DNA of 64,000 nucleotides from Planctomycetota bacterium (GTDB lineage Bacteria; Planctomycetota; UBA1135; UBA2386), in assembly GCA_039029375.1 (NCBI GenBank), contig JBCCGH010000003.1, forward strand, positions 63,375 to 127,374, given 5' to 3'. The position numbers and the translations under genes were made by a program. Shown here in pieces: positions 3,260 to 43,652 of this stretch. Numbering within the stretch: position 1 is the stretch's first letter; the number at the start of each line of letters is the position of its first letter. The notes beneath the pieces are model-generated. The model did no database searches and was not told where the DNA came from. It saw only the letters and a program-made list of their open reading frames with translations.

Positions 3260-3319
3260 TCCATCCCGAGCCGTCGGGGCGGAGTACGCTCTCGGCGCCC
3301 GCCGTCGCGCAGCCCCTCC

Positions 3320-15788: not shown

Positions 15789-15794
15789 GCCGGA

Positions 15795-17698: not shown

Positions 17699-18378
17699 CG
17701 GACCAGATCCGCGTGCTGCTCGTCGACGATCAGCCGCTGCTGCGCGAGGGTCTGCGACTCCTGTTCGAGCTGCAGTCCGACTTCGAGGTCGTCGGCGAAG
17801 CGGGCGATGGCGCCGAGGCGCTGCTGCGGCTCGAGGCCGCCACGGCCGTCGACGTCGTGCTGATGGACGTCCAGATGCCGGGCGTCGATGGCGTCGAGGG
17901 GACCCGGCAACTCCGCGCGCGGTTTCCCGACGTGCAGGTCATCATCCTGACAACCTTCGACGACGACGAGTACGTGTTCGAAGGGCTCCGCGCCGGCGCC
18001 TGCGGCTACCTGCTCAAGGACGTCTCGTCCGAGCGCCTCTTCGAGGCGACCCGCGCCGCCGCCCGCGGCGAGAGCTTTCTGCAGCCGTCGATCGCCGCCA
18101 AAGTGGTGGCCGAGCTGAGCCGCCTCAGCGAGCCCACGACGCAGCGCGCCGCCGCCAACGCCGAGCTCGAGGCGCCGCTCAGCGACCGCGAGCTGGAGAT
18201 CCTCGGGCACCTGGCCGCCGGCCACAGCAACCGGCAAATCGCGGCGCACGTGTTCTTGAGTGAGGGCACCGTCAAGAACCACATCACCGCCATCTTGGCC
18301 AAACTGGGCGTCCGCGATCGCCAGGCAGCGGTGGCGGCGGCGCGAGAACGGCGCCTGCTCCCGCCGGGCGGCAGTTAG
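17695..18378 (+). CDS. Response regulator, NarL/FixJ family (REC + LuxR-type HTH)
   Basis: REC domain: IRVLLVDDQPLLREGL, DVVLMDVQMPGVDG. C-terminus: LSDRELEILGHLAAGHSNRQIAAHVFLSEGTVKNHITAILAKLGV. Confidence 0.95.
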   Translation: MTDQIRVLLVDDQPLLREGLRLLFELQSDFEVVGEAGDGAEALLRLEAATAVDVVLMDVQMPGVDGVEGTRQLRARFPDVQVIILTTFDDDEYVFEGLRAGACGYLLKDVSSERLFEATRAAARGESFLQPSIAAKVVAELSRLSEPTTQRAAANAELEAPLSDRELEILGHLAAGHSNRQIAAHVFLSEGTVKNHITAILAKLGVRDRQAAVAAARERRLLPPGGS

Positions 18379-18561
18379 TGGTGTGGCGTGCTCTAGTGTT
18401 GCGTGTCGGAAGTTCGTCACAGATGTCGACGGCCCTCTGCGCCGCTCGCGGCGTTGCGTCTCCTCGACTTGTCCACCAACAAGCCCTGCGTCGACAGCGC
18501 CTTGCGAGCGGCACACATGGCTCGCCGACTTACGCAACCAACTTCCGACACACAACACTAG
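18376..18561. mobile_element. MITE-like palindromic element A, copy 1
   Basis: Imperfect terminal inverted repeats are ctagtgttgcgtgtcggaagtt and aacttccgacacacaacactag. The core is about 80 % identical to 30216-30384. The element begins in the TAG stop of the response regulator and ends 5 nt before ATG 18566. Confidence 0.75.
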
Positions 18562-18565
18562 TGAC

Positions 18566-19807
18566 ATGATGACGCCAAGGCCTCCTCGATCACCCAGCTG
18601 GCGCTCCACCGTCCTCGCGGTCGTGATCGGGCTGCCAGCAGCCGCGCAAGACAACGCCACCACCCGACCATGGCTGGAGCTCACGCCCCCTTGTGCGCCG
18701 GGCGCCAAGGCACCCGAGCTGTCCGGGCGCGGCACCGACGTGGTGCTGAGCTGGATCGAGCCGGCAGTCGGCGCCGGCGACGAGCCGCGCCACGCGCTGC
18801 GGTTTGCGCGCCTCGAGGACACTGGCTGGGGCCCCGCGACCACGATCGCCGAGGGCCACCGCTGGTTCGTCAACTGGGCCGACCTCCCGGCCGTGATCGA
18901 CGGCCAAGACGGTGCCATGCTCGCGCACTGGCTGCAACGGCTCGAAACACGGCACGCCTACGCCGTGGAACTCGCGCGCTCCGACGACCGCGGCAAGACG
19001 TGGCGGCGCGTTGGCCGACTGCACGACGACAAGACCCAGCAGCAGCACGGCTTCGTGTCGATGCTGGCGGTCGAGTCACACTTTGTCGCCCTATGGCTCG
19101 ACGGCCGCGCGCGCGACGCGGATCCCAGCGCGCCGGTGATGCAGCTCCGCGCGACCCGCATCGACGACGCCGCGCGGCCGAGCCAAGTCGTCGACGGCGA
19201 CGTTTGCTCGTGCTGCCAGACGTCGGCCGTCCTGACCGACACCGGCGTCGTGGCGGTCTACCGCGACCACGACGCCGGCGAGATTCGCGACATCTCCGTC
19301 GTGCACGCGGCCACGCCTTGGAGCAAGCCCAAGCCGGTGCACCGCGACGGCTGGGAGTTCCCCGGCTGCCCCGTGAACGGTCCGGCGCTGGCCACGGACG
19401 GGCATCGCTTGGCCGCGGCGTGGTACACCGCGGCAGAAAGCAAGCCGCGCGTGCTGGTCGCGTTCGCGCCCTCGCCGACAACGGCGTTTGATGCCCCCAT
19501 CGTGATCGACCACCAGAATCCGGTGGGCCGCGTCGACGTGGCGTGGGTCCCGGACGGTGCGGTCGTCAGCTGGCTGGCGCGCGACGGCGAGGACGCCGCG
19601 CTGCGCTTGCGTCGCGCGAGCCCTGACGGCAACCTCGGGGAGCCGCTGACGATCGGCCGCACCAGCCCCGGCCGCGGCAGCGGGTTTCCGCGCCTCGCGC
19701 GCAGCGGCGACCGCCTCGTGATCGTGTGGCAGGGCGAGGGCGAGGGGCTACCGCTGCGCACGGCGATCGTGTCGATCGGGGCGCTGCCGAAGCCGTTGCC
19801 GCGCTGA
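18566..19807 (+). CDS. Secreted BNR/Asp-box (sialidase-like beta-propeller) protein
   Basis: Signal-like N-terminus: MMTPRPPRSPSWRSTVLAVVIGLPAAAQ. Asp-box: SDDRGKTW. It has a repetitive beta-strand-rich sequence. Confidence 0.6.
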   Translation: MMTPRPPRSPSWRSTVLAVVIGLPAAAQDNATTRPWLELTPPCAPGAKAPELSGRGTDVVLSWIEPAVGAGDEPRHALRFARLEDTGWGPATTIAEGHRWFVNWADLPAVIDGQDGAMLAHWLQRLETRHAYAVELARSDDRGKTWRRVGRLHDDKTQQQHGFVSMLAVESHFVALWLDGRARDADPSAPVMQLRATRIDDAARPSQVVDGDVCSCCQTSAVLTDTGVVAVYRDHDAGEIRDISVVHAATPWSKPKPVHRDGWEFPGCPVNGPALATDGHRLAAAWYTAAESKPRVLVAFAPSPTTAFDAPIVIDHQNPVGRVDVAWVPDGAVVSWLARDGEDAALRLRRASPDGNLGEPLTIGRTSPGRGSGFPRLARSGDRLVIVWQGEGEGLPLRTAIVSIGALPKPLPR

Positions 19808-19964
19808 ACCTCCGCACGAGGATGCGGTGATTCGCGGGCGCCCCTCGGTGGGCGGGACACTCAAGTAGAGTCTGGCCTCGGTCGCATTTTGGTTCCGGTC
19901 GAAGCCCAGACCCGCGCCTATAGGGTGCCACTCCGCCGACCACGCCGCCCCCCTTGGTACCACG

Positions 19965-21053
19965 ATGAAGCCAGCCGTATTCATTGCAACAGCGTTCACG
20001 ATCTCCGCGTCAGCACTGGCGCAACCCATCATCATCGTCGACCAGAGCGGTGGTCCGGGTGCCCAGTTCACCGACCTACCGCCTGCGGTCGCGGCCGCCC
20101 CCCCGCGCGCCATCCTGCAAGTTCGTGCGGGTCAGTATTCAGCGTTCACGACCAACAAACCTCTACGCGTGCTCGGTGAGCCCGGCGTGCAGATCGTCGG
20201 CGTCCCCGTGGTGCGTCGCCTGCCGAAGGGTGAGCAGTTTGTGCTCCGCGGCATGCACGCCTCTCCGACGTTGTGGCGTAACCAAGGTCACATCCATCTG
20301 GAGGACGTGTCCTTCGGCCTCGTGGACATCGATGCCTGCGCGCACGTCAGCGTCACCGCAGGCGGCCAGGGGATCATCCGTGCCACCGACAGCTCCGTGG
20401 TTCTGAGCAACGTCACCGGGTGCGGTCAGCCGGGCTGCTTACTTGTGCTCGTGCCCCTCTTCGGGGGAGAGGCGTTGCGGATCACACGCAGCCAGGTCGT
20501 TGCTGCGGGCGGCTCCTATACGGGAGGCAACGGGACCTACTCCGGCGGTGAGGCCATCCTGCTCAACAGCGGTCGGCTGACCATCACCGACCAGACCCGG
20601 GTGCAGGCTGGCCAAGGCGGCCCCCCGAGCTATGGGATCCCCGCCATCGTGGCCAACAACGGTGAGCTGATCGTGGATCCCGGCGCCGTCCTCGCCCCCA
20701 CCGAGTCCTCCCCACCCGTGATTGGTGGGGCGTCGCTCACCTCGGCCGCGGTCGCCTACCTCGAGATGGACGCTTCGGCGGCGCAGCTCGCGTCCACGCT
20801 GCACGCTCCGGCCGGTCAGCAAGGGTTCGTGCTCGCGAGCGCCCCAACGCCACCCATCCCGTTGCCGATCATGGACTTGTGGGTTGATCCGTTGCACGTC
20901 GTCATCGCGGGAGGCACCGTACCAGCCAGCGGCATGCTCACCGGCTCGGTGTCGGTGCCGCCAGTCGCTCCCGGGACGGTGGTCGCGACCCAAGCGGTCG
21001 TCTTGGGTTCAGCTCCGTCGCTGTCCAATCCCGTCGTCACCCGGGTGGAGTAG
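19965..21053 (+). CDS. Secreted parallel-beta-helix-like protein with the shared C-terminal domain (paralog 1 of 3)
   Basis: Signal peptide: MKPAVFIATAFTISASALAQ. The segment IIIVDQSGGPGAQFTDLPPAVAAAPPRAILQVRAGQY is shared with the genes at 59489 and 62551. The C-terminus is ...PIPLPIMDLWVDP...ATQAVVLG.... Confidence 0.7.
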   Translation: MKPAVFIATAFTISASALAQPIIIVDQSGGPGAQFTDLPPAVAAAPPRAILQVRAGQYSAFTTNKPLRVLGEPGVQIVGVPVVRRLPKGEQFVLRGMHASPTLWRNQGHIHLEDVSFGLVDIDACAHVSVTAGGQGIIRATDSSVVLSNVTGCGQPGCLLVLVPLFGGEALRITRSQVVAAGGSYTGGNGTYSGGEAILLNSGRLTITDQTRVQAGQGGPPSYGIPAIVANNGELIVDPGAVLAPTESSPPVIGGASLTSAAVAYLEMDASAAQLASTLHAPAGQQGFVLASAPTPPIPLPIMDLWVDPLHVVIAGGTVPASGMLTGSVSVPPVAPGTVVATQAVVLGSAPSLSNPVVTRVE

Positions 21054-21179
21054 CCTCACCCGCCAGACGCACATCGATCTCGGAGCGCAAGCCAACCCCA
21101 GGTCACGCCCAAACATGACCCGGACGTGACCTGCCCGGTCGTCGCCCTGGCCTAACCTCGGCCCCCGCGAGGCCAAGCC

Positions 21180-22694
21180 ATGACTGACCGAACGATGCTC
21201 TCCCGCCGCCGCTTCTCCCAGCTCCTGGCCGGCGCCGCCGCCGCCGGGTGGCTCGAACTCCCCTACGCCGCCCGCCTGCTGGGCCGCCGGACCAACCGCC
21301 TCAGCTGGCGCGCCCACCGCACCGCTGGCGCCGAGGGGGTCTGGGCCCTCGACGACATCGACGGCGAGATCCCCGCCGACCTCCATGGCACCCTCTACCG
21401 CACGGCGCCGGGCGAGTCCGAGCGCTTTGGCGTGACGTTCCAGCACTTGTTCGACGGCGACGCCTACCTCAGCGGCTACAGCTTTCGCGACGGCAAGGTG
21501 ACGCTGCGCGCGGGCTTTCTCGACCAGCCCCGACGCCTGCGGGAGCAAGAGGCTGGCAAAATGCTCTACTCCGAGTTCGGCACCGCGACCCCGGACGGCA
21601 ACGGCCGCGACGGCAAGAACCAGCCAAGCGTCAACGTCATCCCCTGGGACGGCCGCCTCCTCGGCCTTTCCGAAGGCGGTCACCCGACCGCGATCGATCC
21701 GGCGACGCTACGCACGCAGGGCGGCTGGGACTTCCACGGCACGTTGCCCCAGCAGCACTCGTTCACCGCGCACCCCAAGTTCGATCCCGCGACCGGCCTC
21801 GGCTACTGCTACGGCATCGTGCAGGGCCCCGGGATGGCGCTCCGCGTCTACCGTATGGAGCGCGACGGCACGCTGACCAACCTGTTCAGCCTGCCGCAAC
21901 GCGGCTACTTCATGGTGCACGACATGATGCTCACGGCGGAGCACATCGTGTTCTTGGTCCCGCCGGTGACATTCGACCTCGGCCAGCTGATGAACGGCGA
22001 GGGCACGATCGGCGACTGCCTGCGGTACGCCGAGGACCGGCCGTTGCGGGTGCTCGTGATGCGCAAAGACGGCGAGGGCGTGGCCGACGAGATCGACCTG
22101 GACGCGGGCATGGTGTTTCATCACGGCAACGCGCGCCTGGACAGCGACCAGCTCATCCTCGACTCGCTGCTCTCCCCCAGCGGCGACGTGCTGAAGTTTC
22201 TGCATGCCTGGGCCGCCGACAAGATGCCGCGAGGGCAGCCGGTGCAGGCGACGCGGTTGACGATCGACCTGGCCAAGGGTGAGCTGGCGAGCCGCGATGT
22301 GTTCGCCGAGCAAGAGGAGTTCCCGCGCTTTGACGAGCGGCACACCGGCACGGAGGCCCGCTACCTCTACGCCGCGGGGCAGCCGCCGAAGGACGACGGC
22401 ATGGCGTTCCAGGCGTTGGTCCGGCACGACCGGCGCGAGGGTACGGACGAGGCGCGCCGCGTCGCCGCGCACCAGACCGTGGCCGAGCCGGTGTTCGTCC
22501 CGCGGAACGCGGATGCGGCGGAAGGCGACGGCTGGCTGCTGCAGCTAGGCTACGACGGACGTCGCGACCAGACGTTCCTCGACGTCGTCGACGCCGGCAC
22601 GCTGGACCGCGCAGCGCGCGTGTGGACCGGCACGCACATCCCGCTCGGCTTCCACGGCACCTTCGCGCCCGACCTGTTCGTCGCGGCGGAGTAG
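21180..22694 (+). CDS. Carotenoid cleavage oxygenase (RPE65/CCO) family protein, Tat-signal-like N-terminus
   Basis: The N-terminus LSRRRFSQLLAGAAAAG is twin-arginine-like. The conserved His contexts are HPKFDP, MVHDMM, FHHGNA and GFHGTF. Confidence 0.85.
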   Translation: MTDRTMLSRRRFSQLLAGAAAAGWLELPYAARLLGRRTNRLSWRAHRTAGAEGVWALDDIDGEIPADLHGTLYRTAPGESERFGVTFQHLFDGDAYLSGYSFRDGKVTLRAGFLDQPRRLREQEAGKMLYSEFGTATPDGNGRDGKNQPSVNVIPWDGRLLGLSEGGHPTAIDPATLRTQGGWDFHGTLPQQHSFTAHPKFDPATGLGYCYGIVQGPGMALRVYRMERDGTLTNLFSLPQRGYFMVHDMMLTAEHIVFLVPPVTFDLGQLMNGEGTIGDCLRYAEDRPLRVLVMRKDGEGVADEIDLDAGMVFHHGNARLDSDQLILDSLLSPSGDVLKFLHAWAADKMPRGQPVQATRLTIDLAKGELASRDVFAEQEEFPRFDERHTGTEARYLYAAGQPPKDDGMAFQALVRHDRREGTDEARRVAAHQTVAEPVFVPRNADAAEGDGWLLQLGYDGRRDQTFLDVVDAGTLDRAARVWTGTHIPLGFHGTFAPDLFVAAE

Positions 22695-22714
22695 CGGTGC
22701 CGCCGCGCGGCGGG

Positions 22715-23539
22715 CTACAGGTAGTCGAAGCGCTGCATCAGCTCGCCGCAGACTTCCTCGATCACGGCGACGTCTGCCTCGGACAGCTCGCGCTGCCAGC
22801 GACCACGCGAGCTCTCCGGCGTTGGCGCGGTGCCGTGCGTGCGGAAGGGCCCGCCGGTCTCGAGTGCGCGCTCAACCCACTTGTGCCATTCGAGCCCGAG
22901 GAACGCGAGGACCTGCTCGATGTGGTGCCGAGGCTCGGCCACGGTGTCCTCGTAACGCATGACTAGCGGGTTCGCCACGCGCTCCAGCAGCCCGGCGTAG
23001 AGCGTCGACCAGGAGCGCGCCAACACCGGCGCGGTCAAGTCGATGAGCTCGGGGTAGTTCGCCTTGATGTTGTCGCGCTTGGCGTATGCACGCCACGAGC
23101 AGAGGACGTCGCGCGGGTCGCGGACGAGGATCAGGTAGCGGTAGTCCGGCCAGAGGTTCATGGCCGTGAGCGCCGCGCGCGGGTCCGGCAGCTTGTCGCC
23201 AAACCAGCGGTACTTCTTCTTCGGAAACAGCTCGCGGTAGAAGTCCTCGGCCGCCTCCTTGGTGCGCCCGGTAAACACCTTGGCGATCGCCGGCTGATGG
23301 TGCTCGCCCACGATGCCGCGCATGTGCACGTCCTCGCGGGTCACGAAGTGACCGATGCGCGTTTCCGGCACGTTCACCAGCTCCACGCAGAAGTGGAGGA
23401 AGTCGAAGACGCGCGCCTCGTTGGACAGTGCGATCTCGGGATGCTCGCGGAGCACCTCGTACAGCCACGTCGACCCGCAACGGCCGGAGCCGAGGATCAA
23501 GAAGAGCGAGGCGTTGGGACGGTCGGAGGCCGCGGGCAT
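22715..23539 (-). CDS. Sulfotransferase family protein
   Basis: 5'-PSB-like loop: LILGSGRCGSTWLYEVL. A later RDPRDV segment is 3'-PB-like. The ATG at 23539 lies 19 nt after the stop of the upstream GTPase-kinase gene. Confidence 0.7.
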   Translation of the reverse strand: MPAASDRPNASLFLILGSGRCGSTWLYEVLREHPEIALSNEARVFDFLHFCVELVNVPETRIGHFVTREDVHMRGIVGEHHQPAIAKVFTGRTKEAAEDFYRELFPKKKYRWFGDKLPDPRAALTAMNLWPDYRYLILVRDPRDVLCSWRAYAKRDNIKANYPELIDLTAPVLARSWSTLYAGLLERVANPLVMRYEDTVAEPRHHIEQVLAFLGLEWHKWVERALETGGPFRTHGTAPTPESSRGRWQRELSEADVAVIEEVCGELMQRFDYL

Positions 23540-23558
23540 GCTGCGCAAAGAGTAAGGC

Positions 23559-25223
23559 TCAGTCCTGCACGCTCGCCACCATGGATCGGGGCGGCATGAC
23601 CGGCTCGAAGGGGATCGAGAGCGAGAAACGCGTCCATTCGCCTTCTTCGGACTCGACCCAAACTTGCCCACCGTGACCGAGCGCGACCTCGCGCACGATG
23701 TGCAGGCCGAGACCCGTGCCGCTGACACAGCCGGTGTTGCTACCGCGCTCAAAGCGCTTGAACAACCGCGGCAGATCCTCGGCCGGGATGCCGATCCCGT
23801 TGTCCTCGACCTCGAACACGTGCTGATCGCCTTCGGCTCGGTGTCGCACCGAGATCCGCGGCCGGCGCTCGGGATGCGTGTACTGCAGCGCGTTGCCGAC
23901 CAGATTCATGAACGCCTTGCTCAGCGCCCAGGTATCGGCGGCGATGGTCGGCAACGGCTCGATCCGGCAGCAGACGTCCTTTTGATCGATCTCGAAGCGG
24001 AGCGTGCGCACGACGTCCGCGACGATCAGCGTGGCGTCGGTCTCCTGGAAATGCAGCTGCACGCCATCGTCGTCTAGTCGCGAGCTATCGAGCAGCTCGT
24101 GCACGAGCTTCTCCATCTGCTGGATCGCCAGGAGACCGTTGTCCACGGCGTCGTGCCCGCGCTTCTCGAGCTCGCCAAAGAGCCCCTGCCGCAGCGAGGA
24201 CAGCATCAGCTTGACGACCGAGAGCGGCCGGTTGAGGTCGTGCACCGTGTTCTGCGCGATCTCGACCAGCTCACGGTTGCGACGCTCCAGCAACCCCTTG
24301 TAGCGATCCAGCTCGCCGAAGTGCTCGGCAAGCTCGACGTTCGTCCGGATCACATCGTCGAGCAGCCGCTCCGGGTCTTCGTCGACGGGATCGGTCGCGA
24401 CCTCGGTCCCGTCGGGAGCGGCGAAGAGCTCGGGGTTGAGGTCGTCGTCACTCAACACCTCGGGCTCCGGCTGGTCGGCCTTCTTGCCGTCGGACAGCCA
24501 GTCGGGCACGGTCACCTGGACCTTGCCGCTGTCGCCGTCGCCACGGTCGTCGCGGCCCTGATCGTGCAGCTCCCAGAGCTTGGCGCGCGCACCCTCGGCG
24601 ACCGTCTCCGGCGCGGCGCCGCGGCGCCCGAGCCCGTACTGCAGCACCTTCGATTCGACGATCTGGCCAGCGGCGTGCACGAACGTCTCAAACACGCCGT
24701 GCCCCTCGCGCGCCACACTCGGAAACGAGGACACTCCCTCGCGCCAAGCAAACGCCTCGTCGAGCTCACCCTCGGGCAGGATGTCGTCCAGATCGCGCTT
24801 GTTGTACTGCAGGACGATCGGCGTGGTCTCCGGGTCGAGACCGTTCGACGACAGATTCTCTTTGAGGCTCAGCAGCGACTGTTGGTTCTCTTCGAGCCGG
24901 CTGCGTTGGCTATCAACGACGAACACCACGGCATCCGCGCCCTGCAACACGTAGCGGCGCATCCGCTTGTACTTGGGCTGCCCCGGCACGGTGAAGCCCT
25001 GGATGCGGATCTTGAAGGTCTCGATCTGGCCGAGATCGATCGGCAGAAAGTCGAAGAGCAGCGTCGAGTCGTCCTCGGTGTTGATCGAGACGAGCTGCAC
25101 CTCGTCCTTGGGGCACAACACGGTGTGCACGTGCTGGAGGGATGTGGTCTTCCCGCCCATGCCGACGCCGTAGTACACCAGCTTGGCGCAGATCGTCTTG
25201 TCTGCGAGATTGATGAATCCCAT
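23559..25223 (-). CDS. MglA-like small GTPase fused to a histidine kinase (HisKA + HATPase_c)
   Basis: The N-terminal 190 aa are collinear with MglA. Matching segments are MGFINLADKTICAKLVYYGVGMGGKTT (P-loop), DSTLLFDFLP (switch I), TVPGQ (switch II), YNKRD and SVAREGHGV. A coiled coil follows. The H-box is VHDLNRPLSVV, the N-box is NLVGNALQYT, and the G-boxes are VEDNGIGIP and GTGLGLHIV. Confidence 0.85.
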   Translation of the reverse strand: MGFINLADKTICAKLVYYGVGMGGKTTSLQHVHTVLCPKDEVQLVSINTEDDSTLLFDFLPIDLGQIETFKIRIQGFTVPGQPKYKRMRRYVLQGADAVVFVVDSQRSRLEENQQSLLSLKENLSSNGLDPETTPIVLQYNKRDLDDILPEGELDEAFAWREGVSSFPSVAREGHGVFETFVHAAGQIVESKVLQYGLGRRGAAPETVAEGARAKLWELHDQGRDDRGDGDSGKVQVTVPDWLSDGKKADQPEPEVLSDDDLNPELFAAPDGTEVATDPVDEDPERLLDDVIRTNVELAEHFGELDRYKGLLERRNRELVEIAQNTVHDLNRPLSVVKLMLSSLRQGLFGELEKRGHDAVDNGLLAIQQMEKLVHELLDSSRLDDDGVQLHFQETDATLIVADVVRTLRFEIDQKDVCCRIEPLPTIAADTWALSKAFMNLVGNALQYTHPERRPRISVRHRAEGDQHVFEVEDNGIGIPAEDLPRLFKRFERGSNTGCVSGTGLGLHIVREVALGHGGQVWVESEEGEWTRFSLSIPFEPVMPPRSMVASVQD

Positions 25224-25366
25224 CGATTCGCTCCCGGGCAGGCGTCCCGCAACCGGCGCATGCCCTGCCTATCCATCGGCTGACCAAGCGAGGCGGCTTG
25301 GGCTCCTGCGCGACGGTCGATCGGTGTCGGGTTTCGCAACAGCGCCGGGCGAGTCGGCCGATCGCC

Positions 25367-26725
25367 CTACCTGGGCTCTCCCGTCGGCGCCGTGGCCTCC
25401 ACGGGAGCGACCGGCGCCCGCGGCACCAGGACGAAGACACCCGTTCGGTCGGACGCCTGCGCCGCTTCGAGCGCGGCCAGCACAGCCTCGCCCGGCACAC
25501 CTCGCGCCAAGGCCTCGGGGTCGTCGGGCCAGCGACGCAGCGCCGCGATCGCCAGCGCCCGGGCCAACGGCTGCAGGGCCCGGGGGTGCACTGTAGCGCC
25601 GGGGACCGCCACCAGCGGCGCCCCGAGCTGCCGCGCAAGGCGCGCCCGGGCCGCCTCGATCTCGGCGGCGCCCGGCGGATCTCGCCGCAGATCGGCGACG
25701 AACTCCGCCAACTCAGCGCGCACCGCGTCCGGCTGGTCGCCGTCGCGAGCCCGGCGATAGACCAGTGCCACCGGGTCGAGCAATGGGTCATAGCGCATCG
25801 GCGGGCAGTCGGCCCAGAACTCGTGCCCGCGGGCAGCTCCCAGCGCCTTCACGGCGCGCGCCCGCACCAGCTCCATCGCCAGCCAGAATGCCGGCAGGCT
25901 GGCATCCTCGGGCTCCGGCGACCGCCACGCGTGGACGGCGTACGGGGCGGCCACACGTCGATGGTCACGCACGGTCGGCGCTCTAGACGAGCGGACGTGC
26001 CGCGCCACGCTCGGGCACGGCCCCCGGGGCCCTTCGAGCTCGCTGAACATCCGATCGACGGTCGCCTCGAGCGCCGCCACCGAGCGCCCGCCAACCAGAA
26101 CGAGCGTGGCGCAGCGCGGCTGCAGGGCGGCGCGCAGGTGCTGCCGCAGCCAGCCAGCGTCGACCACTTCGATGTCGGCGACCGTACCGTGCACCGGCCG
26201 CGCGGCGCCCCGCCCGGCGAGGAGGCCGGCCCGCGCCAGGTTGAGCAAGATTGGCCCAGGGATGAGCTCACTCTCGTCATCGGCGCGGAGGGCGGCGCGC
26301 CAGCGCGCCCGCTCGAGCAGATCGTCATCGCTGCGTTGCGCCAAACGCAACAGTTCGACGAGCGCCGCGAGCGACGCCGCACCACTGGGATCCGGCCCCG
26401 TGCGCGACAGCAAGATCGCCGGCTCGGACACTTCGACCAACGCCACGGGCGTGGCTCCGCTCGGCGCGTCGGGCGCGGGTTCGGCCAACAGGCGCAGCGC
26501 TTCGCCGACCATAGCCGCCGCCCCGGCCGCCCCGTCAGGATCGTGCTGCGCCCCGACGCCCAACGCCAACACCACGCAAGCCCCGCGCGCGTTCGGCATC
26601 GACACGCAGCGCGCGGTGAGCCCGTGATCCAGCGTGCGCACCTTGCCCGCGACGGGCGCCGACTGCGCCGCGCCGTTCGCCGCTACCAGCGCGGCGAGAC
26701 CGAGCCCCCACCACCATGCCCTCAT
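25367..26725 (-). CDS. Secreted M16 (pitrilysin)-like peptidase homolog lacking the HxxEH zinc motif
   Basis: Signal peptide: MRAWWWGLGLAALVAANGAAQ. The N-terminal M16-like pattern is ...LALGVGAQHDPDGAAGAAAMVGEAL, where HxxEH would be expected. The protein is about 450 aa. The 5' end overlaps the ABC gene by 4 nt. Confidence 0.45.
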   Translation of the reverse strand: MRAWWWGLGLAALVAANGAAQSAPVAGKVRTLDHGLTARCVSMPNARGACVVLALGVGAQHDPDGAAGAAAMVGEALRLLAEPAPDAPSGATPVALVEVSEPAILLSRTGPDPSGAASLAALVELLRLAQRSDDDLLERARWRAALRADDESELIPGPILLNLARAGLLAGRGAARPVHGTVADIEVVDAGWLRQHLRAALQPRCATLVLVGGRSVAALEATVDRMFSELEGPRGPCPSVARHVRSSRAPTVRDHRRVAAPYAVHAWRSPEPEDASLPAFWLAMELVRARAVKALGAARGHEFWADCPPMRYDPLLDPVALVYRRARDGDQPDAVRAELAEFVADLRRDPPGAAEIEAARARLARQLGAPLVAVPGATVHPRALQPLARALAIAALRRWPDDPEALARGVPGEAVLAALEAAQASDRTGVFVLVPRAPVAPVEATAPTGEPR

Positions 26726-28059
26726 CCCGCTACCGCGACTTGTCGGCCGCGCTCCAGTCGAATCATTCGGTCGGCGCAGGCCTCGGCCAGCCCGACGTCG
26801 TGCGTGATCAACACACAGGCCGCGCCGCTCGTCTGCAGCACCGCCAACAACAGCGCGACGACGCCAACCGCGGTGGCCCGATCGAGGGACGCGGTCGGTT
26901 CATCGAGGATCAAGATCTCGGGCCGCACCGCCAAGGCGCGCAAGAGCGCGGCGCGACGGCGCTCCCCGCCCGATAACGCGGCGGCGGGGCGCGCCAGATG
27001 CGCGGACGTCAGGTGCAGCTGCGCCGCGGTCGCATCGAGGTCGAAGCCCGGCACCGCGACCTCACGTACCAACGCGCCGACGGGCACACCGGGAGTCAAT
27101 GAGGCAAACGCGTCTTGAAACAGCAGTTGCACTGCAGCGCGCGGGGCCGGCCGCTCGACCTTGCCCGTGGTTGGACGCAGGTGCTGCGCCAGCAGCTTGG
27201 CGAGCGTGGTCTTGCCCGCGCCGGATGGCCCCACCACGGCCACCACTTCGCCGGCAGCGAGCGTCAGGTCGAGGTCGCGCAGAATCCAGTGGCGCCCGCC
27301 GATCCGCCGGCCGAGGCCGTAGCACCGCAGCACGGCGCGAGCGGTCGGGGCGCGTCGCTCGCGGCTGGGCCAGGGCGGCAGGGCCGGGGCGCCCGCGACA
27401 AAGACCCCGCCACTGGTGAAGTGCAGGGGCGTGGCGGCCAGCGCGCGGACGACGGCGTGGTCGTGCGTCGCCACAAGGACAGCAGTGCCGTGCAGGCGCC
27501 GCACCGCCGCGAGCGCGTCGAGCACGCGCTTGGCGATCGCGTCGTCGAGACCCGCGGTTGGCTCATCGGCGATCAACAGCGCCGGACGGCGCAGCATGGC
27601 GGCGGCGAGGGAGCAGCGCTGGGCCTGCCCACCGGAGATCTGATGCGGATACCGCCGCATCAGCAGACGGGGCTCGGCGATCCCGACGTCCGCCAGCGCC
27701 TGCGCGACGTCCACGCGGGCGCGGCGACTGGCGATCGCCAGCTGCTCGCCCAGGCGCACCAGCGGATCGAAGGCGCTCGGAGCGTCCTGCGGCGCGATGG
27801 CCACGTGGTTGCGCAGCAGCTCCCGCAGCCCGGCACCCGCCGGCAGGGCGTCTCCCAGACAGTGCACTTCACCGCGGATCCCCAGCCCTGGATCCAGGCG
27901 AAACAACCCCCGAAGTACACTGGTCTTCCCGCAACCCGAGGGACCGAGCAGGGCCGCGGCTCCGCCGGGATCGAGCGCCAGCTCCGGGACTTCCGCTCGC
28001 ATCGCCGGGACGCGCTCCACGGCGAAGCCGCGTAGGCTCAGGACGGGCTCGGCGGCCAC
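26722..28059 (-). CDS. ABC transporter ATP-binding protein with two fused nucleotide-binding domains
   Basis: Walker A motifs: GPSGCGKTS and GPSGAGKTT. Signature motifs: ISGGQAQRCSLA and LSGGERRRAALL. Walker B motifs: LLIADEPTAGLD and ILILDEPTASLD. Confidence 0.85.
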   Translation of the reverse strand: MAAEPVLSLRGFAVERVPAMRAEVPELALDPGGAAALLGPSGCGKTSVLRGLFRLDPGLGIRGEVHCLGDALPAGAGLRELLRNHVAIAPQDAPSAFDPLVRLGEQLAIASRRARVDVAQALADVGIAEPRLLMRRYPHQISGGQAQRCSLAAAMLRRPALLIADEPTAGLDDAIAKRVLDALAAVRRLHGTAVLVATHDHAVVRALAATPLHFTSGGVFVAGAPALPPWPSRERRAPTARAVLRCYGLGRRIGGRHWILRDLDLTLAAGEVVAVVGPSGAGKTTLAKLLAQHLRPTTGKVERPAPRAAVQLLFQDAFASLTPGVPVGALVREVAVPGFDLDATAAQLHLTSAHLARPAAALSGGERRRAALLRALAVRPEILILDEPTASLDRATAVGVVALLLAVLQTSGAACVLITHDVGLAEACADRMIRLERGRQVAVAG

Positions 28060-28168
28060 GGCGTCGAGGCGCGACCACGCCGCGCGGGGTTTCGGCAGGT
28101 TGAGCTCGGCACTCGGCTTGCTGGAGCGTATGGGTAACCGCTTCCTGCACCTCGCAGACTACATAGCC

Positions 28169-29320
28169 ATGATCCGGACCGCCATCACCGTCGCGATCGC
28201 CTGCGCCGTCATCAGCGGCGCCCCGGCCCGAGCTCAGGAGGGCGGCTCGGGCACTCCACTCGATGCACTGCACGAGGCCTACCAGCAGGAGCGCCTCAAG
28301 CTGCTGCAGGGCAGCGCCGGCTTCGAGGCGATGCGGGAGCTCACCGAGGGCTTTGTCACCAAGCTGGCGAAGTTCGTGGCCGAGGACGCCAAGGGCACCG
28401 ATCGCCACAACGGGCGGCTCATGCTCGTCGACTACCGGCTGAGCCTCGGCCAGCGCGAGCAAGCGACGGAGGCGCTGCTCGAGCTCGACGCCGAGTCGGC
28501 GCCGGCGTTGGCGCTCGCCGGCGCCGCCGAGTTTGCCAAATACCTCGACCTGCAAGAAACACGCGCCGCGTGGATCGAGGCGGCGCTGGCCAAGAAGGAG
28601 TCGTTTGAGAATCGCATGGCGCTGGGCATGCACCTCATGACACGCCTAGAGGAGATCGAGCAGGGCGAGGCGGTGTTTGCCGCGGCGTTCGCGGCGGCCG
28701 GCGACGACGAGGCGCGCGCCCGGGTCCGCTGGTACCAGGCCGCGGCGCTCCGCGAACGCGAGGACCTCGGCGAAGACGACTACGAGACCGCGCTCAAGGA
28801 GCTGGCCGAGGAGTTCCCGGACACGCGCTTTGGCGACATCGCCACCGACCGGCTCCTCGCCCGCATGCTCAAGCCCGGCGCCGACGCCATCGGTCTGGCG
28901 GCGCGGGCCCTCGACGGCAGCGAAGTGCGGTTGAGCGGTCTCACCGGCAAGGTCGTGCTCCTCGACTTCTGGGCCACCTGGTGTGGCCCTTGTCGCGACG
29001 TCATGCCGGCGCTCCGTGAGCTCTACACGGAGCACCACGAGCGGGGCCTCGAGGTGATCAGCATCGCCATGGACCCGGACGTCGACGCGGTGCGCCGCCT
29101 CGTCGCCGAGCAGAAGATGGAGTGGCCGGTCATCTGCGATGGCGACGGCCCCATGTCCGAGCCAGCCCTGCGCTGGGCGGTCGACGGCCCACCGCGGATG
29201 GTGCTGATCGGCCGCGATGGCAAGATCGCCGAGCTGCGCCTGTTTCCCTACGACCCGACCGGCCTCGAGCGGGCACGGGCCGCGATCGACACGGCGCTGG
29301 CACAGGACGCGGGTCAGTAG
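28169..29320 (+). CDS. TlpA-family thiol:disulfide oxidoreductase with N-terminal helical (TPR-like) domain
   Basis: Signal peptide MIRTAITVAIACAVISGAPARAQ (ATG 28169; 28130 is an alternative). The thioredoxin fold carries LLDFWATWCGPCR. Confidence 0.8.
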   Translation: MIRTAITVAIACAVISGAPARAQEGGSGTPLDALHEAYQQERLKLLQGSAGFEAMRELTEGFVTKLAKFVAEDAKGTDRHNGRLMLVDYRLSLGQREQATEALLELDAESAPALALAGAAEFAKYLDLQETRAAWIEAALAKKESFENRMALGMHLMTRLEEIEQGEAVFAAAFAAAGDDEARARVRWYQAAALREREDLGEDDYETALKELAEEFPDTRFGDIATDRLLARMLKPGADAIGLAARALDGSEVRLSGLTGKVVLLDFWATWCGPCRDVMPALRELYTEHHERGLEVISIAMDPDVDAVRRLVAEQKMEWPVICDGDGPMSEPALRWAVDGPPRMVLIGRDGKIAELRLFPYDPTGLERARAAIDTALAQDAGQ

Positions 29321-29331
29321 CGGGATCGCGC

Positions 29332-30219
29332 GTGAAGCCTGCTGACGAACGCACGGCCCGCTTCTGGGAGGCGAGCCACGCCGCAGACTGCGCCGCCGAT
29401 GCGTTTCTCGAGCATCCGGTCATCCAAGCGTACTTGTCGCTGCGCGCCTACGGCAGCACGCGAGCGCATCTGGACGTCGCGATCGACGAGCTGCGCCAGC
29501 GCACCGCCCCTGGCGCGCGGATCCTGTCGGTCGGCTGTGGCGCCGCCAACAAGGAGCGGGTGATCTGCCGCGCGCTGCCCGACCGCCAGATGTTCGGCGT
29601 GGACGTCGCGCGGCAGACACTCGCTCGCACCGCCGAGGAGTGCCGGGCCGAGGGCATTGACAACCTCACGCTGGACTACGGCGACTTCAACGCGCTCGAC
29701 CTCGAGCCCGCGTCGTTTGACGCGATCCTTGGGCTTGGTGCGATCCACCACGTTGAGAACCTGGAGAGCTTTTGGACGCAGTGCCGGAGCGCGCTGCGGC
29801 CGGCCGGGTTCGTGCTCGCGCAGGAGTATGTCGGGCCGAGCCGCTTCCAATGGACGGACGCGCAGATCGCGCACGGCAACCGCGTGCTCGCTGACCTCGT
29901 ACCGCGCGCGCTTCAGGTGCATCACACCGAGGTCCAGCGGGTCGTCCTCGCGGAGATCATCGCCGCCGACCCCTCCGAGGCAGTGCGCTCCGAGGAGTTG
30001 CTGTCGACGTGCACGGCCGCCGGCCTGCGCCTGGACGCGCATCACGGCGCGGGCTGCGGCCTACTGCTGCCGGTCCTGTGGGACCAAGTACACGCCTTCG
30101 ACCCGCACGATTGGGACCACAATCATGTGCTGTTCCAGCTGTTCGCTGCCGAAGCCCAGCTCATCGACGACGGCGTCGTGGGCGACTGCTACGCGATGTT
30201 CTCAGCCGTCCCGGCCTAG
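29332..30219 (+). CDS. Class I SAM-dependent methyltransferase
   Basis: Motif I is RILSVGCGAANKE, followed by FDAILGLGAIHHV. The GTG start at 29332 lies 12 nt after the upstream stop. The stop TAG at 30217-30219 lies in the terminus of MITE A copy 2. Confidence 0.75.
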   Translation: MKPADERTARFWEASHAADCAADAFLEHPVIQAYLSLRAYGSTRAHLDVAIDELRQRTAPGARILSVGCGAANKERVICRALPDRQMFGVDVARQTLARTAEECRAEGIDNLTLDYGDFNALDLEPASFDAILGLGAIHHVENLESFWTQCRSALRPAGFVLAQEYVGPSRFQWTDAQIAHGNRVLADLVPRALQVHHTEVQRVVLAEIIAADPSEAVRSEELLSTCTAAGLRLDAHHGAGCGLLLPVLWDQVHAFDPHDWDHNHVLFQLFAAEAQLIDDGVVGDCYAMFSAVPA

Positions 30220-30384
30220 TGGTGTGTCTCCGAAGTTCGTCACATATGGCGCCGGCCCTCCGCGCCGTTCGCTGCGTTGTGTCGCCTCAACTTGTCCACC
30301 AACAAGCCCTGCGGCGACAACGCCTTGCGAACGACACAGATTCCTCGCCGACTTATGCAACGAACTTCGGAGACACACCACTAG
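30216..30384. mobile_element. MITE-like palindromic element A, copy 2 (complete, 169 bp)
   Basis: Perfect 25-nt terminal inverted repeats: ctagtggtgtgtctccgaagttcgt ... acgaacttcggagacacaccactag. The element fills the whole gap between two convergent genes. Both stop codons are the TAG of the terminal CTAGs. Confidence 0.85.
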
Positions 30385-31058
30385 CACGACACGAGCCAAG
30401 CGATACCGACCACGATCGACACGGTGCCGACGGCGACCATCAGCCGCGGCACCGCCCGATCACCACAGGAGCGCACCAGCCAGCCGATCGCACCGCCGAA
30501 CCCGGTCATGATCGCGACGCTGGCAGCGAGGTAGCTGCCGATGAAGACCGCGGCGTCCGGTGGGGCCATCGCCAGCGACGGGATGACGGCCCAGAAGTGA
30601 CCCGCGCCGGCGAGACCGTGCAGCACGCCAACGCCAAACGCAGCGTGGCGGTGACCGTGCGGGGGAGCGGCGGGCCCGTGTGCATCGCCATCATGCCGAT
30701 GCTCGGGGTGGTGCACGTGGAGATGCACGTGCTCGCCCTCGCCGTGCGAATGCGCGTGGTCGTGCACGACCAGCCCCCGCGCCCGGCGCAACGCCGTCAA
30801 GCCGATCACGATGAGCACGACACCGACCAGGCGCTCCGCCCATCCCGATGCGATCTCGACGTCGGTGAACGACAGCGCCGTTTGCCCCAGCAGACCGAGC
30901 AGCGCCACGCCGAGGCCGTGGCCCAAACCCCACAGGGCACCGATGGCCGACGGGCGCAGGCGACGGGGCGCGCCGACGGCCAAGGGGGCCACGCCGGCCA
31001 GATGATCCGGGCCGGTCATCACGTGGGCAGCGCCGGCGAGGAGTCCCTGGACGATCAT
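30381..31058 (-). CDS. HupE/UreJ- or NicO-like nickel/cobalt transporter with a His-rich loop
   Basis: The N-terminal motif AAHVMTGPDHLAG is the H-x5-DH type. There are about 6 hydrophobic segments. The central loop is HDHAHSHGEGEHVHLHVHHPEHRHDGDAHG.... Confidence 0.55.
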   Translation of the reverse strand: MIVQGLLAGAAHVMTGPDHLAGVAPLAVGAPRRLRPSAIGALWGLGHGLGVALLGLLGQTALSFTDVEIASGWAERLVGVVLIVIGLTALRRARGLVVHDHAHSHGEGEHVHLHVHHPEHRHDGDAHGPAAPPHGHRHAAFGVGVLHGLAGAGHFWAVIPSLAMAPPDAAVFIGSYLAASVAIMTGFGGAIGWLVRSCGDRAVPRLMVAVGTVSIVVGIAWLVSC

Positions 31059-33286: not shown

Positions 33287-36112
33287 ATGGCAGCCCCCCA
33301 CACGCGCGTGGCCGCGGTCTTCCTCGAAGCCCGATCGCTGGGCGATGACCGCCGTGCCCAGTTCCTGGACCAAGCATGCGTCGCCAATGCGACGCTCCGT
33401 GCCGAAGTCGAGGAGCTCCTCGGTTGGGACCGCACGCGCGCGCCGTTCGACACGCCGATCGATATCCGGTGGGACGCGGTCCACACCGGCGCGGACGGGC
33501 CGCCAGTCCCGACCCGCATCGGCCCCTACGACATCGTCAACGTTCTCGGCACCGGCGGCATGGGCACGGTGTACCGCGCGCGCCAGTCCAATCCCGCGCG
33601 CGACGTGGCCCTCAAGGTGATGCGACCGGGCCTGACGACGCCGTCGCTGGCGCGGCGGTTCGCCATCGAGGCCGACGCCCTCGGCCGCCTGCAGCACGCG
33701 GGGATCGCCCAGATCTACGAGGCGGGCACCGCGGACGACGGTCACGGCCCGCAGCCGTTCTTCGCCATGGAGCTCGTCGAGGGCGACGTGCTCACCAGGT
33801 ACGCCGAACGCCAGAGGCTCGATACGCGCGCGCGGCTCGAGCTGCTGGCCAAGATCGCTCGCGCGGTGCACCACGCGCACCAGAAAGGCGTCGTGCACCG
33901 CGATCTGAAGCCGAGCAACATCCTGGTGACCGCCGCCGGCGAGCCGAAGATCCTCGACTTCGGTGTGGCCCGAGTCACCGACGCGGACGTGGAGGCCGTC
34001 ACGCGGCAAACCGATGCCGGCCAGCTCATCGGCACGCTGCCATACATGAGCCCGGAGCAGGTCGCTGGCACGCCCGACGCAATCGACATCCGCTCCGACG
34101 TCTATGCCCTCGGCGTCATCGGTTATGAGCTCCTCGTCGGCGTGCTGCCGATCGACATCCGCGGCAAGCCCCTGCCCGAGGCGGCGCGCACGATCCAAGA
34201 AGACGTGCCGACTCGACTCAGCTCGGTGGCCCGCACCTACCGAGGCGACATCGACACGATCATCGCCAAGGCCCTCGAGAAGGAACGTCAACGGCGCTAT
34301 CAATCCGCCGACGAGTTGGCCGACGACGTCGAGCGCTTTCTCAAGCACGAGACCATCTCCGCACGGCCACCGACGCTGGGCTATCAAGCGGCGGTCTTCG
34401 CACGCCGCCACAAGGGGCTGGTGGCGGGGCTCGCCGGGGTGGTCATCGCGCTGGCGGGCGGCACGGTGACCAGCACCGCCCTTTACCTGAAGGCCGAAGA
34501 TCAACGCATCGAGGCCGAGCTGAAGCGCGGTGAGGCGGAGACCGCCCGCGCCGCCGAAGAGCGCGCCCGCAACGCGGCCGATGCGGCCCGCGTCGAGGCC
34601 GAGCGGCAGTCGAAGATCGCGCAATCCGTCAACCGCTATCTGACCCATGACCTGATCGCGTCGGTGTCGCCGTCGAGCAACCCGACGATGCGCGAAGTGG
34701 TCGAGGCCGCCGCTGCGAGCCTCGACGAACGGTTCCCCGACGATCCCGCCATCGAGGGCTCGGTGCGCGCGGCGATCGGCCGTACGTTCAAGCGACTCGG
34801 TGACTACGAGAAGGCCGAGCAACATCTGCGGGCGTCGGTCGACGGCCTCATCGCCAGCCTCGGCCCCGAGCACCTCGAGACGGTGCTGGCGATGAACAAC
34901 CTGGGCCTGCTGTATGTGAACCAGCGGCGCCACACGGAAGCCAAGGCGCTGTTGGAACCCGCGGTCGAAGTCGCGGAGCGCGACCTTCCCGCGGATCACC
35001 CCGAGATGCCGACGCTGCTCATGAACCTCGGCGCCGCGTACTCGGGGCTGGGCGAGTTTGCCGAGGCGATGCCGGTGCTGGAACGCGCGCTCGAGCTCGT
35101 GCTGGCGCTGTTCGGTGAGGACAGCGTGGAGACGAGCCGCGCCATGGCAAACCTGGCTTCGGCCGCTGGGCGGGCCGGCGACCGAGACCGGGCGCGCGAG
35201 CTGTTTGAGAAGTGCCTCGCCATCGACCGCTCGCTGTTTGGCGACGACCACTCCGAAACCATCACCGACCTCAACAACCTCGGCGGCTTCTACCTCGACG
35301 AGGGCGACTACGACCGGGCCCGCCCCATGCTCGAGGAAGCGGTGGCGCGGGGCCGCCGGGTGTTCGGCGATCGGCACCCGCTACAGCTGCGGATGCGCGG
35401 CAATCTCGCCAGCATGTACAGCGAGCTCGGCGAGGATGCCCGGGCGGTCGCCATTTACGAGGAGCTCGTCGAGATCAGCCGCGACAGCCTCGGCCCGGAC
35501 GCGGCCATGACCCATTCGCTGATGAACAACCTGGCCGGCACCTACGCCGACTTGGATCGACACGACGAGGCAGAGGCCGCCTACGTCGCGGTGCTCGAAT
35601 CGCGCCGGCGCACGCTCGGTGAGGACCACGTGCAGACCCTGCTGTCGGCGAACAACCTCGGCGCGCACTACCGCAAGCAGGGCGATCTCGACCGCGCTGA
35701 GCCCCTCCTCACCAACGCGAGCGCAGGCTTCGAGCAACGCCTTGGCCCCGACCACCGCCGCACGCTGAGCGCCAAGTCCAACCTCGGCGCCCTGCTGGCG
35801 GACCGCGGTCGTTACGACGAAGCGGCCTCGCTCCTGTCCGGCCTGCTGCCGCCGACGCTGGAAGCGTGGCCCGCGGACCACTGGTATCCGGCCCTGGTGC
35901 GCGCCCGGCTCGGCGTGGCGCTGACCGGCCAGCGCCGATTCAAGGACGCCAAGCGCGAGCTGCTACAGGCCCACGACATCCTCGATGCAGCCCTCGGGAC
36001 CGACCACGACCGCACGGTCCAATGCCGCGGGCACATCGTCTCGCTCTACGAGACCTGGGGGCAGCCCGACGCGGCGGCCCAATGGAGAGAGCGAGGCTCC
36101 GCGCCGCGCTAG
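33287..36112 (+). CDS. Ser/Thr protein kinase with TM segment and C-terminal TPR repeats
   Basis: Kinase motifs: GTGGMGTVY, VALK, HRDLKPSNIL, DFG, PYMSPEQ. TM segment: LVAGLAGVVIALAGGTV. About 8 TPR_10/12-like repeats follow (...MNNLGLLYVNQRRHTEAK...). Confidence 0.95.
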   Translation: MAAPHTRVAAVFLEARSLGDDRRAQFLDQACVANATLRAEVEELLGWDRTRAPFDTPIDIRWDAVHTGADGPPVPTRIGPYDIVNVLGTGGMGTVYRARQSNPARDVALKVMRPGLTTPSLARRFAIEADALGRLQHAGIAQIYEAGTADDGHGPQPFFAMELVEGDVLTRYAERQRLDTRARLELLAKIARAVHHAHQKGVVHRDLKPSNILVTAAGEPKILDFGVARVTDADVEAVTRQTDAGQLIGTLPYMSPEQVAGTPDAIDIRSDVYALGVIGYELLVGVLPIDIRGKPLPEAARTIQEDVPTRLSSVARTYRGDIDTIIAKALEKERQRRYQSADELADDVERFLKHETISARPPTLGYQAAVFARRHKGLVAGLAGVVIALAGGTVTSTALYLKAEDQRIEAELKRGEAETARAAEERARNAADAARVEAERQSKIAQSVNRYLTHDLIASVSPSSNPTMREVVEAAAASLDERFPDDPAIEGSVRAAIGRTFKRLGDYEKAEQHLRASVDGLIASLGPEHLETVLAMNNLGLLYVNQRRHTEAKALLEPAVEVAERDLPADHPEMPTLLMNLGAAYSGLGEFAEAMPVLERALELVLALFGEDSVETSRAMANLASAAGRAGDRDRARELFEKCLAIDRSLFGDDHSETITDLNNLGGFYLDEGDYDRARPMLEEAVARGRRVFGDRHPLQLRMRGNLASMYSELGEDARAVAIYEELVEISRDSLGPDAAMTHSLMNNLAGTYADLDRHDEAEAAYVAVLESRRRTLGEDHVQTLLSANNLGAHYRKQGDLDRAEPLLTNASAGFEQRLGPDHRRTLSAKSNLGALLADRGRYDEAASLLSGLLPPTLEAWPADHWYPALVRARLGVALTGQRRFKDAKRELLQAHDILDAALGTDHDRTVQCRGHIVSLYETWGQPDAAAQWRERGSAPR

Positions 36113-42660: not shown

Positions 42661-43056
42661 TCAGCGCAGAGCGATGCAATCGATCTCGACCAGACCGTTC
42701 TTCGGCAGAGTCTTGACCGCGAGCGCCGCACGGGCGGGTTTCACGCCGGGAAAGAACTCGGCGTACACCTCGTTGACGGCGACGAAGTCCGCCATGTCGG
42801 CGAGATACACCGTCGTGCGCACGACGCGATCCATGCTCGTGCCGGCCGCCTCGAGCACCGCGCCGAGGTTGGTCAGGGCGCGGCGGGCCTGCTCGGCGGC
42901 GGTTGCTCCCACCATCTCGTTGGTCGTCGGGTCGAGGGCGACTTGACCGGAGCAGAACACCAGGTCACCGGCGACGATGGCCTGGTTGTAGGGCCCAATG
43001 GCCTTGGGGGCGGCGTCGGTGTTGATCGCTTTCTGAGTCACGGCAGCTCCTCGCAA
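42661..43056 (-). CDS. ridA: RidA/YjgF/TdcF family reactive-intermediate deaminase
   Basis: APKAIGPYNQAIVAGDLVFCSGQVALDP ... RTTVYLADMADFVAVNEVYAEFF...PARAALAVKTLPKNGLVEIDCIA. Confidence 0.9.
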   Translation of the reverse strand: MRGAAVTQKAINTDAAPKAIGPYNQAIVAGDLVFCSGQVALDPTTNEMVGATAAEQARRALTNLGAVLEAAGTSMDRVVRTTVYLADMADFVAVNEVYAEFFPGVKPARAALAVKTLPKNGLVEIDCIALR

Positions 43057-43074
43057 GACGCGGCGGGATGAAGA

Positions 43075-43578: not shown

Positions 43579-43652
43579 GGCGCTTCGATCGTAACCGTCT
43601 GACGCTGCGAGGCACGGAGACATTGGGGCCGGCGACGCGCGGCCGCCGCGTC

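Follow-up and report, generated by a model that had tools for sequence, protein, structure and literature searches.

IS630 inserts into the TA of 5′-CTAG-3′, according to what PMC6811581 relays of Tenzen & Ohtsubo 1991, and two further insertion sequences (ISs) that land in CTAG, IS870 and ISMt1, employ the target's TAG as a stop codon (PMC13630536). RUP (repeat unit of pneumococcus), a non-coding element of 107 bp, carries terminal inverted repeats (TIRs) like those of IS630-Spn1, has TA as its insertion site and is presumed to be mobilized in trans (PMC2229807). [quoted passage not shown] Here, we describe a 169-bp palindrome at positions 30216–30384 of a 64-kb window, that is, the whole stretch of Planctomycetota DNA analyzed (assembly GCA_039029375.1, contig JBCCGH010000003.1). 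We propose, with a probability of roughly 85%, that this palindrome is a non-autonomous MITE derived from, and mobilizable in trans by, a DDE transposase of the IS630 family (IS630/Tc1/mariner superfamily). CTAG targeting and the use of TAG as a stop are already known for IS630 relatives; the IS630-type MITE family represented by this element is new and previously undescribed.

The element at 30216–30384, hereafter copy 2, measures 169 bp when both terminal CTAGs are counted and is bounded by a perfect 25-nt TIR. The left TIR, CTAGTGGTGTGTCTCCGAAGTTCGT, occupies 30216–30240 on the plus strand, and its exact reverse complement forms the right TIR at 30360–30384 on the minus strand. Within the left TIR, the first C and the TA that follows would represent the target and its duplication, such that the element proper would begin at G30219. 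Copy 2 takes up all of the DNA that separates two convergent genes, whose stops both lie in its terminal CTAGs. These dimensions and the filled gap had been described in an earlier, sequence-only reading of the window and were borne out by independent gene calls on both sides (P0001 and MEM7198932.1). At 169 bp, the element contains no transposase gene (tblastn with a transposase of the L019 type, described below, gave no match in the window).

The evidence that carries the IS630 assignment comes from the termini. A degenerate terminus pattern, CTAGTGKTGYGTSTCSGAAGTT, recovered 15 loci from the JGI metagenomes, and an inverted partner terminus was present in at least 11 of the 15. Partners were located 143–222 bp away in nine cases, about 85 bp away in one, and approximately 1.19 kb away in two full-length ISs. 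The short elements with related termini measured 143 bp (L022 and L026), 146 bp (L024), 165 bp (L031), 169 bp (L023 and L033), 176 bp (L032) and 222 bp (L030). Among these, L023 and L033 were 93.5% identical with different flanks, indicating sister MITEs at different sites, and L026 and L024 were 80% identical across samples. The first full-length IS (L019:2034–3225, 1192 bp, JGI contig Ga0335072_10077148) has a CTAG at each boundary, and its 382-aa product contains the domains HTH_32, HTH_29 and DDE_3. This protein scored 182 bits against the NCBIfam equivalog NF033545, 'IS630 family transposase' (cutoff 100), a model applied only to L019 of the two ISs from the terminus search; the second IS, in L028, measures about 1194 bp and encodes a transposase 74% identical to that of L019. 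The L019 transposase has more than 1,700 homologues, of which the named ones are IS630 family transposases from Actinomycetota and Solirubrobacteraceae metagenome-assembled genomes (MAGs). Furthermore, two 1195-bp copies with the same termini (L039 and L040) reside at different sites of one 2.7-Mb contig, each bounded by CTAG.

The termini of copy 2 match 20–21 of the first 22 nt at the ends of the L019, L028, L039 and L040 elements, which are ISs from other organisms, and the left TIR agrees with 21 of the 22 positions of a consensus built from the retrieved termini. Together with the sister MITEs that share these ends, the presence of such termini on an IS with an NF033545 transposase upheld the proposal, made from the letters of the window, of an IS630/Tc1-type MITE at CTAG. 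IS630-family relatives on Streptomyces plasmids were only approximately 43% identical, and their ends differed.

CTAG was present at every terminus examined, in both intact copies of the window and in the related elements, including partner termini that had not been subject to selection by the search pattern. The window has a GC content of 69.7% and contains 28 CTAGs in 64 kb. Counting as stops only those of long open reading frames (ORFs) with coding-like codon-position GC, 10 of 26 element termini coincided with a stop, compared to 10 of 106 background CTAG orientations at the same loci (odds ratio 6; Fisher one-sided P = 0.0008). A cruder test by open-frame length alone gave 11/26 versus 37/106 (P = 0.31, not significant); this version is uninformative because GC-rich DNA often contains extended open frames that are not coding. 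An accumulation of such elements at TAG stops, which the sequence-only reading had described, was thus confirmed as an enrichment but was only partial, since the L039 and L040 copies do not lie at stops and the association is not obligatory.

The enrichment does not call for a preference for stops as such. When the two intact copies are set aside, 24 CTAGs remain in the window; we classified these by hand on a rough gene map with several unknowns, and about 6–7 were stops, approximately 9 were intragenic and approximately 8 were intergenic or unclear. By this rough count, stops make up approximately 40–45% of the non-disruptive CTAG targets in the window, which is near the share seen for the elements. 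The CTAG specificity of IS630 combined with the loss of disruptive insertions is therefore sufficient to produce the stop-codon pattern.

Both ends of an element fell on the stops of convergent genes in two cases, copy 2 and the L019 IS. This arrangement implies a pre-insertion state in which one CTAG was common to two genes. The flanks of the L019 IS show the same geometry as copy 2: a plus-strand ATP-binding cassette (ABC) ATPase gene (499–2037) and a minus-strand ORF (3222–3689) have their stops in its terminal CTAGs. Separately, an unoccupied CTAG at L033:2479 is the stop of long coding-like ORFs on both strands and offers an example of such an empty-site state.

In the window, the gene to the left of copy 2 (29332–30219, plus strand) encodes an S-adenosylmethionine-dependent class I methyltransferase, as indicated by Pfam methyltransferase domains, and its TAG stop (30217–30219) lies in the left CTAG (30216–30219). 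A database protein of 295 aa from a Planctomycetota MAG (P0001; NCBI and Logan gene call) is 100% identical to its product and ends at the same TAG. The host is an uncultured member of this phylum and not an actinobacterium. The convergent gene on the right (30381–31058, minus strand; MEM7198932.1, 225 aa) has its CTA stop (30381–30383) in the right CTAG (30381–30384). Its product is hydrophobic with a His-rich loop (HDHAHSHGEGEHVHLHVHHPEHRH...), its codon-position GC (GC3 phase) fits coding sequence, and it has no Pfam or NCBIfam match. The annotation 'hydantoin utilization protein A' is probably wrong; the product is a multi-pass membrane protein that looks more like a metal transporter. Proteins of the source MAG are deposited in GenBank as MEM7198912–MEM7198956, with locus tags beginning AAF628_.

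The terminal CTAGs had been thought to supply the stop codons of the flanking genes. The stops do lie in these CTAGs, but they appear to have been preserved rather than supplied: the C-terminus of the methyltransferase falls within 1–2 residues of the end in ten element-free homologues, and because the protein ends in register with all ten, its stop is native.

In the mechanism that we favor, an IS630-family transposase would bind the terminal repeats of approximately 22–25 nt (GTGGTGTGTCTCSGAAGTT...), and the excised element would be pasted into the TA of 5′-CTAG-3′ with duplication of the TA. As the element proper would start with G and end with C, insertion into C-TA-G would give CTA-G...C-TAG and hence a CTAG at both junctions. 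A TAG stop hit in this way would be rebuilt for the left gene and the mirror-image CTA would be rebuilt for the convergent gene on the right, leaving no protein changed, and the insertion would presumably be neutral. The empty site of copy 2 would have read GCCGTCCCGGC-CTAG-CACGACACG, with two convergent genes using one CTAG as overlapping stops; the reconstructed empty junctions would be GCCGTCCCGGCCTAGCACGACACGAGCC for copy 2 and GGTGTGGCGTGCTCTAGTGACATGATGACG for copy 1, the second intact copy. Surviving copies would be expected to accumulate at gene ends because CTAG is scarce at 70% GC and many of the harmless targets are already stops. The autonomous partner IS would be expected to carry GTGGTGTGTCTC...GAAGTT ends.

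We considered whether copy 2 could instead be a regulatory region of long standing, conserved between the two genes, or an artefact that arose when a palindrome was assembled. The collections contain no close relative of the source organism: its protein clusters are single-member, from one sample, and the next methyltransferase homologues are about 60–66% identical. Two distant relatives keep the upstream order of ABC ATPase, thioredoxin-like and methyltransferase genes. In one of them (L037), 72 nt of spacer follow the methyltransferase and do not match the element profile, and in the other, for which gene coordinates alone were used, the next called gene begins only 18 nt after it. The element-free gene end in these relatives argues against an ancient conserved region, short of an empty-site proof. 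An origin in assembly error would agree with the Logan assembly of SRR22824298, which breaks within both intact copies: contig _134304 covers 18534–30305 and contig _255342 starts at 30344, leaving 38 nt of the copy 2 center in neither contig, as expected if a repeat or hairpin breaks the assembly graph. Yet this independent assembly reproduces both halves of copy 2. We also rejected the breaks as evidence of many copies, because the same contigs break elsewhere too (e.g., at 33898–33923), and hairpins or other repeats suffice to explain them. Copy 2 also sits exactly where synteny with the relatives stops, which would favor these alternatives; against them, the 169-bp unit recurs at three unrelated loci and its termini belong to a mobile IS family. 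We regard a conserved region or an artefact as hardly probable at all.

With regard to gene order at this boundary, the methyltransferase gene of the two distant relatives is followed by L-PSP, CTP_transf_like and ComEC genes, directly after 18 nt in one and with a single intervening gene of 349 aa in the other. The three genes are located at about 42661–45833 of the window, which leaves an extra block of approximately 11 kb (30385 to about 41500), with copy 2 exactly on its left edge. A composite transposon bounded by MITEs was considered for this block and rejected, as no copy lies at its right edge.

Copy 1, the second intact copy, spans 18393–18561 (169 bp) and aligns with copy 2 ungapped over all 169 nt at 85% identity. 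Its TIRs have 2 mismatches over 25 positions. No gene stops in its own left CTAG (18393). Directly before it lies a partial extra terminus of 17 nt, TAGTGGTGTGGCGTGCT (18376–18392, plus strand), the first 10 nt of which (TAGTGGTGTG) are identical to the terminus of copy 2. The gene upstream of copy 1 (17695–18378, plus strand; start codon uncertain) encodes a LuxR-type response regulator with Pfam Response_reg and GerE domains, and exact look-ups of its 227-aa and 221-aa versions gave no match. Its TAG stop (18376–18378) sits in the extra terminus in a TTAG context. The extra terminus is probably what remains of a previous insertion (and excision) at this place, or else the product of aberrant repair. 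On the other side, the right end of copy 1 lies 4 nt upstream of the annotated ATG at 18566 of gene AAF628_01570 (MEM7198923.1; 18566–19807, plus strand).

Copy 3 is an internal fragment without TIRs at 47384–47459 on the minus strand, corresponding to element positions of about 60–135. BLAST aligned it to copy 2 at 90% identity over 70 nt (47384–47453), and the profile search extended the match to 47459. A CTAG containing the TAG stop of a sulfatase gene (47375–47378, plus strand) lies 5 nt before the fragment, consistent with an original insertion at that CTAG followed by the loss of approximately 30 nt of terminus.

These results revise several details of the sequence-only reading. Copy 1 had been recognized as a real copy with a doubled left terminus, and it proved intact, but at 85% rather than about 80% identity, 4 rather than 5 nt from the ATG, and with a span of 18393–18561. 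It had been said to start in the response-regulator TAG, and that stop belongs to the 17-nt partial extra terminus, outside the CTAG of the copy itself. Copy 3 had correctly been called inverted and incomplete, but its homology is limited to 47384–47459, it has no TIRs, and it starts after, not in, the CTAG of the sulfatase stop.

The three copies, two intact and one fragment, thus occupy unrelated gene loci within 72.7 kb. BLAST revealed nothing else in the 64-kb window, and nhmmer with a two-copy profile added no copy there or in a further 8.7 kb upstream of it (L049). The core GTCCACCAACAAGCCNNGCGNCGAC had no match in 185,579 GTDB representative genomes and none in the JGI metagenomes; a looser core pattern, ACTNGTCCACCAACAAGCC, hit 17 loci, all of which were chance matches of 19–23 nt in unrelated phyla and were discarded. 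Blastn of the unit against PLSDB plasmids gave no match, nor did a concatenated query of the translations of six open frames from the two intact copies at E ≤ 10 in a collection of 5.8 billion protein sequences.

The window contains other repeats besides this family. A second family comprises a unit of approximately 153 bp at 15638–15790, whose 33-nt ends are inverted repeats matching at 97% (CGTACGGAGCCGCGACAAAAACCGCCGGATTCG and its reverse complement), and a solo third arm at 59109–59145 (92%); this family may be another MITE. Tandem repeats of approximately 300 bp lie in a VCBS-repeat protein gene (1859–2841). In addition, the segments 33866–34150 and 50447–50740 form a 72%-identical paralogous segment common to two large genes, and this segment coincides with the Logan contig junction at 33898–33923.

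Several observations weigh against the interpretation as an IS630-derived MITE. The likeness to the retrieved ISs is limited to the 21–23 terminal nt, and the direct parent is not among them; the element interior is unrelated to these ISs and to most of the sister MITEs. An IS630 transposase with matching ends, which the sequence-only reading had suggested looking for, was found in the metagenome loci L019 and L028, but none was found in the 64-kb window (by tblastn) or in the 8.7 kb of extra sequence. Only two intact copies are known, and their 15% divergence speaks against a recent burst. Moreover, C-TA-[G...C]-TA-G and CTAG-[...]-CTAG look alike on sequence alone, so that a duplication of TA and one of 4 bp would leave the same junctions. 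Finally, the differences between copies 1 and 2 include a pattern, described below, that neutral MITE decay does not predict.

The ambiguity of the junctions could equally suit a MITE from a family that duplicates 4 bp, such as an IS5-family derivative, with the flanking CTAGs as the target duplication. A precedent exists in MITEPsy1, which has IS5-like ends and is reported to duplicate CTAG or YTAA (PMC3189936). However, the full-length elements with the termini found here encode a transposase of the IS630 family and not of the IS5 family, and these termini are unlike the MITEPsy1 repeat GGAAGGTCTGAAAAAGCC. An IS5-like origin is, in our judgment, very improbable.

The pattern mentioned above concerns the symmetry of the two arms. 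Copy 1 departs from copy 2 at 25 positions, and in four instances a change in one arm is matched by its complement in the other: G·C to T·A at 7/163, C·G to G·C at 13/157 and 16/154, and T·A to C·G at 65/105. At least four such double changes have a probability of approximately 1e-4 in simulations of 25 random substitutions. Three of the four lie in the TIRs, and positions 7 and 16 also vary across the wider element family. In every short element with both arms well preserved (L030, L031 and both window copies), the two arms agree at these positions, whereas in the full-length elements L039 and L040 one arm differs from the other at four positions. The double changes could stem from correction of one arm by the other, from master copies that were each symmetric but not the same, or from selection on the hairpin, with two sequences as the whole basis.

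Selection on the hairpin would imply a domesticated structural element, kept for a role of its RNA or DNA, e.g., as a bidirectional stabilizer of 3′ ends or a barrier to transcription separating convergent genes, comparable to Correia/NEMIS or REP sequences. Such a role would explain the maintained arm symmetry, including the double changes and the greater symmetry of the MITE arms relative to the full-length IS arms. It would also be in line with the stability of the folds. Copy 2 as a whole is an imperfect palindrome that folds into a single hairpin of −93.6 kcal/mol (shuffle mean −47, z = −10.9), a stability reached by 0 of 200 shuffles, and the copy 1 hairpin reaches −88 kcal/mol (z = −9.8). 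Furthermore, the core is the best-conserved part and persists in the fragment without TIRs: a 15-nt core, GTCCACCAACAAGCC, is unchanged in the alignment of all three copies, and alignment and folding place a mini-hairpin at the apex (CTTGT-CCACCA-ACAAG, 30291–30306) within the most conserved region. The locations at gene 3′ ends point in the same direction.

Nevertheless, the interior pairs poorly, with only 47 of 84 mirror pairs. No terminator-like or promoter-like site was detected at either intact copy on either strand, and the flanks CACGACACG and GCCGGGACG contain no T run or U-tract of the kind expected at a Rho-independent terminator. A search of the whole window against Rfam 15 at the gathering score returned no match; the sole sub-threshold hit with E ≤ 1, mir-1397, scored 17.8 bits against a cutoff of 70 (E = 0.46) and was set aside as chance. 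The window also contains no tRNA or tmRNA. The earlier suggestion that the core could serve as an RNA or terminator module therefore found no support. In addition, copy 1 lies upstream of a gene start and not just at a 3′ end. The three double changes in the TIRs affect sequences to which the transposase would bind, positions 7 and 16 are variable family-wide with both arms in the same state wherever a short element has kept both well, arm-to-arm conversion would yield the same signal without function, and the case as a whole depends on two sequences. We consider a domesticated hairpin unlikely and interpret the long hairpin as a by-product of the inverted repeats, probably without a selected RNA.

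A bolder extension of this idea, which we hold to be quite improbable, is that short derivatives of this IS630 lineage favor and persist at CTAGs shared by convergent stops, with arm symmetry actively maintained, as the double changes hint, and the hairpin separating or insulating the converging transcripts. If true, the element would represent a transposon-delivered bidirectional 3′-end module spread across phyla.

As an IS630-derived MITE, the element opens no new mechanism and represents neat yet ordinary biology. The poorly studied phylum Planctomycetota thereby gains a MITE family that can clearly be affiliated with IS630. It also illustrates how a CTAG target combined with the end bases G...C can make the stops of a GC-rich genome safe landing sites, including stops shared by convergent genes. 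For annotation, elements of this kind explain intergenic palindromes, assembly breaks and odd replacements of 5′ untranslated regions in GC-rich MAGs.

Among the described systems, RUP with IS630-Spn1 is the closest in kind, being likewise a short non-coding element with IS630-type TIRs. The two share no sequence similarity and belong to different phyla, and the element described here is 169 bp long with 70% GC, strict CTAG junctions and a strong link to stop codons. RUP is present in about 108 copies, compared to the two or three known here, and no cognate IS of the window element was found in the window or the 8.7 kb of extra sequence. IS630 of Shigella, IS870 of Agrobacterium and ISMt1 of Mycobacterium resemble the element in their insertion at CTAG. 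All three are autonomous, however, and the TAG at IS870 ends its own transposase ORF, whereas the window element is non-coding and its TAGs end host genes on both sides. The L019 transposase is also unlike that of IS870 in having its own TGA, 40 nt inside the element end. Correia/NEMIS elements are similar in MITE size, TIRs, long hairpin and position at gene ends but differ in IS family and have no sequence similarity to the window element, in which no promoter-like site was detected; RNase III processing and IHF-site motifs have been described for Correia elements. REP/BIME sequences are likewise intergenic palindromes at gene 3′ ends and can stabilize mRNA. REPs are imperfect palindromes of 20–40 nt that are tied to transposases of the RAYT (IS200/IS605-type) group and have neither long TIRs nor junctions at CTAG, whereas the termini of the window element are of the IS630 type.

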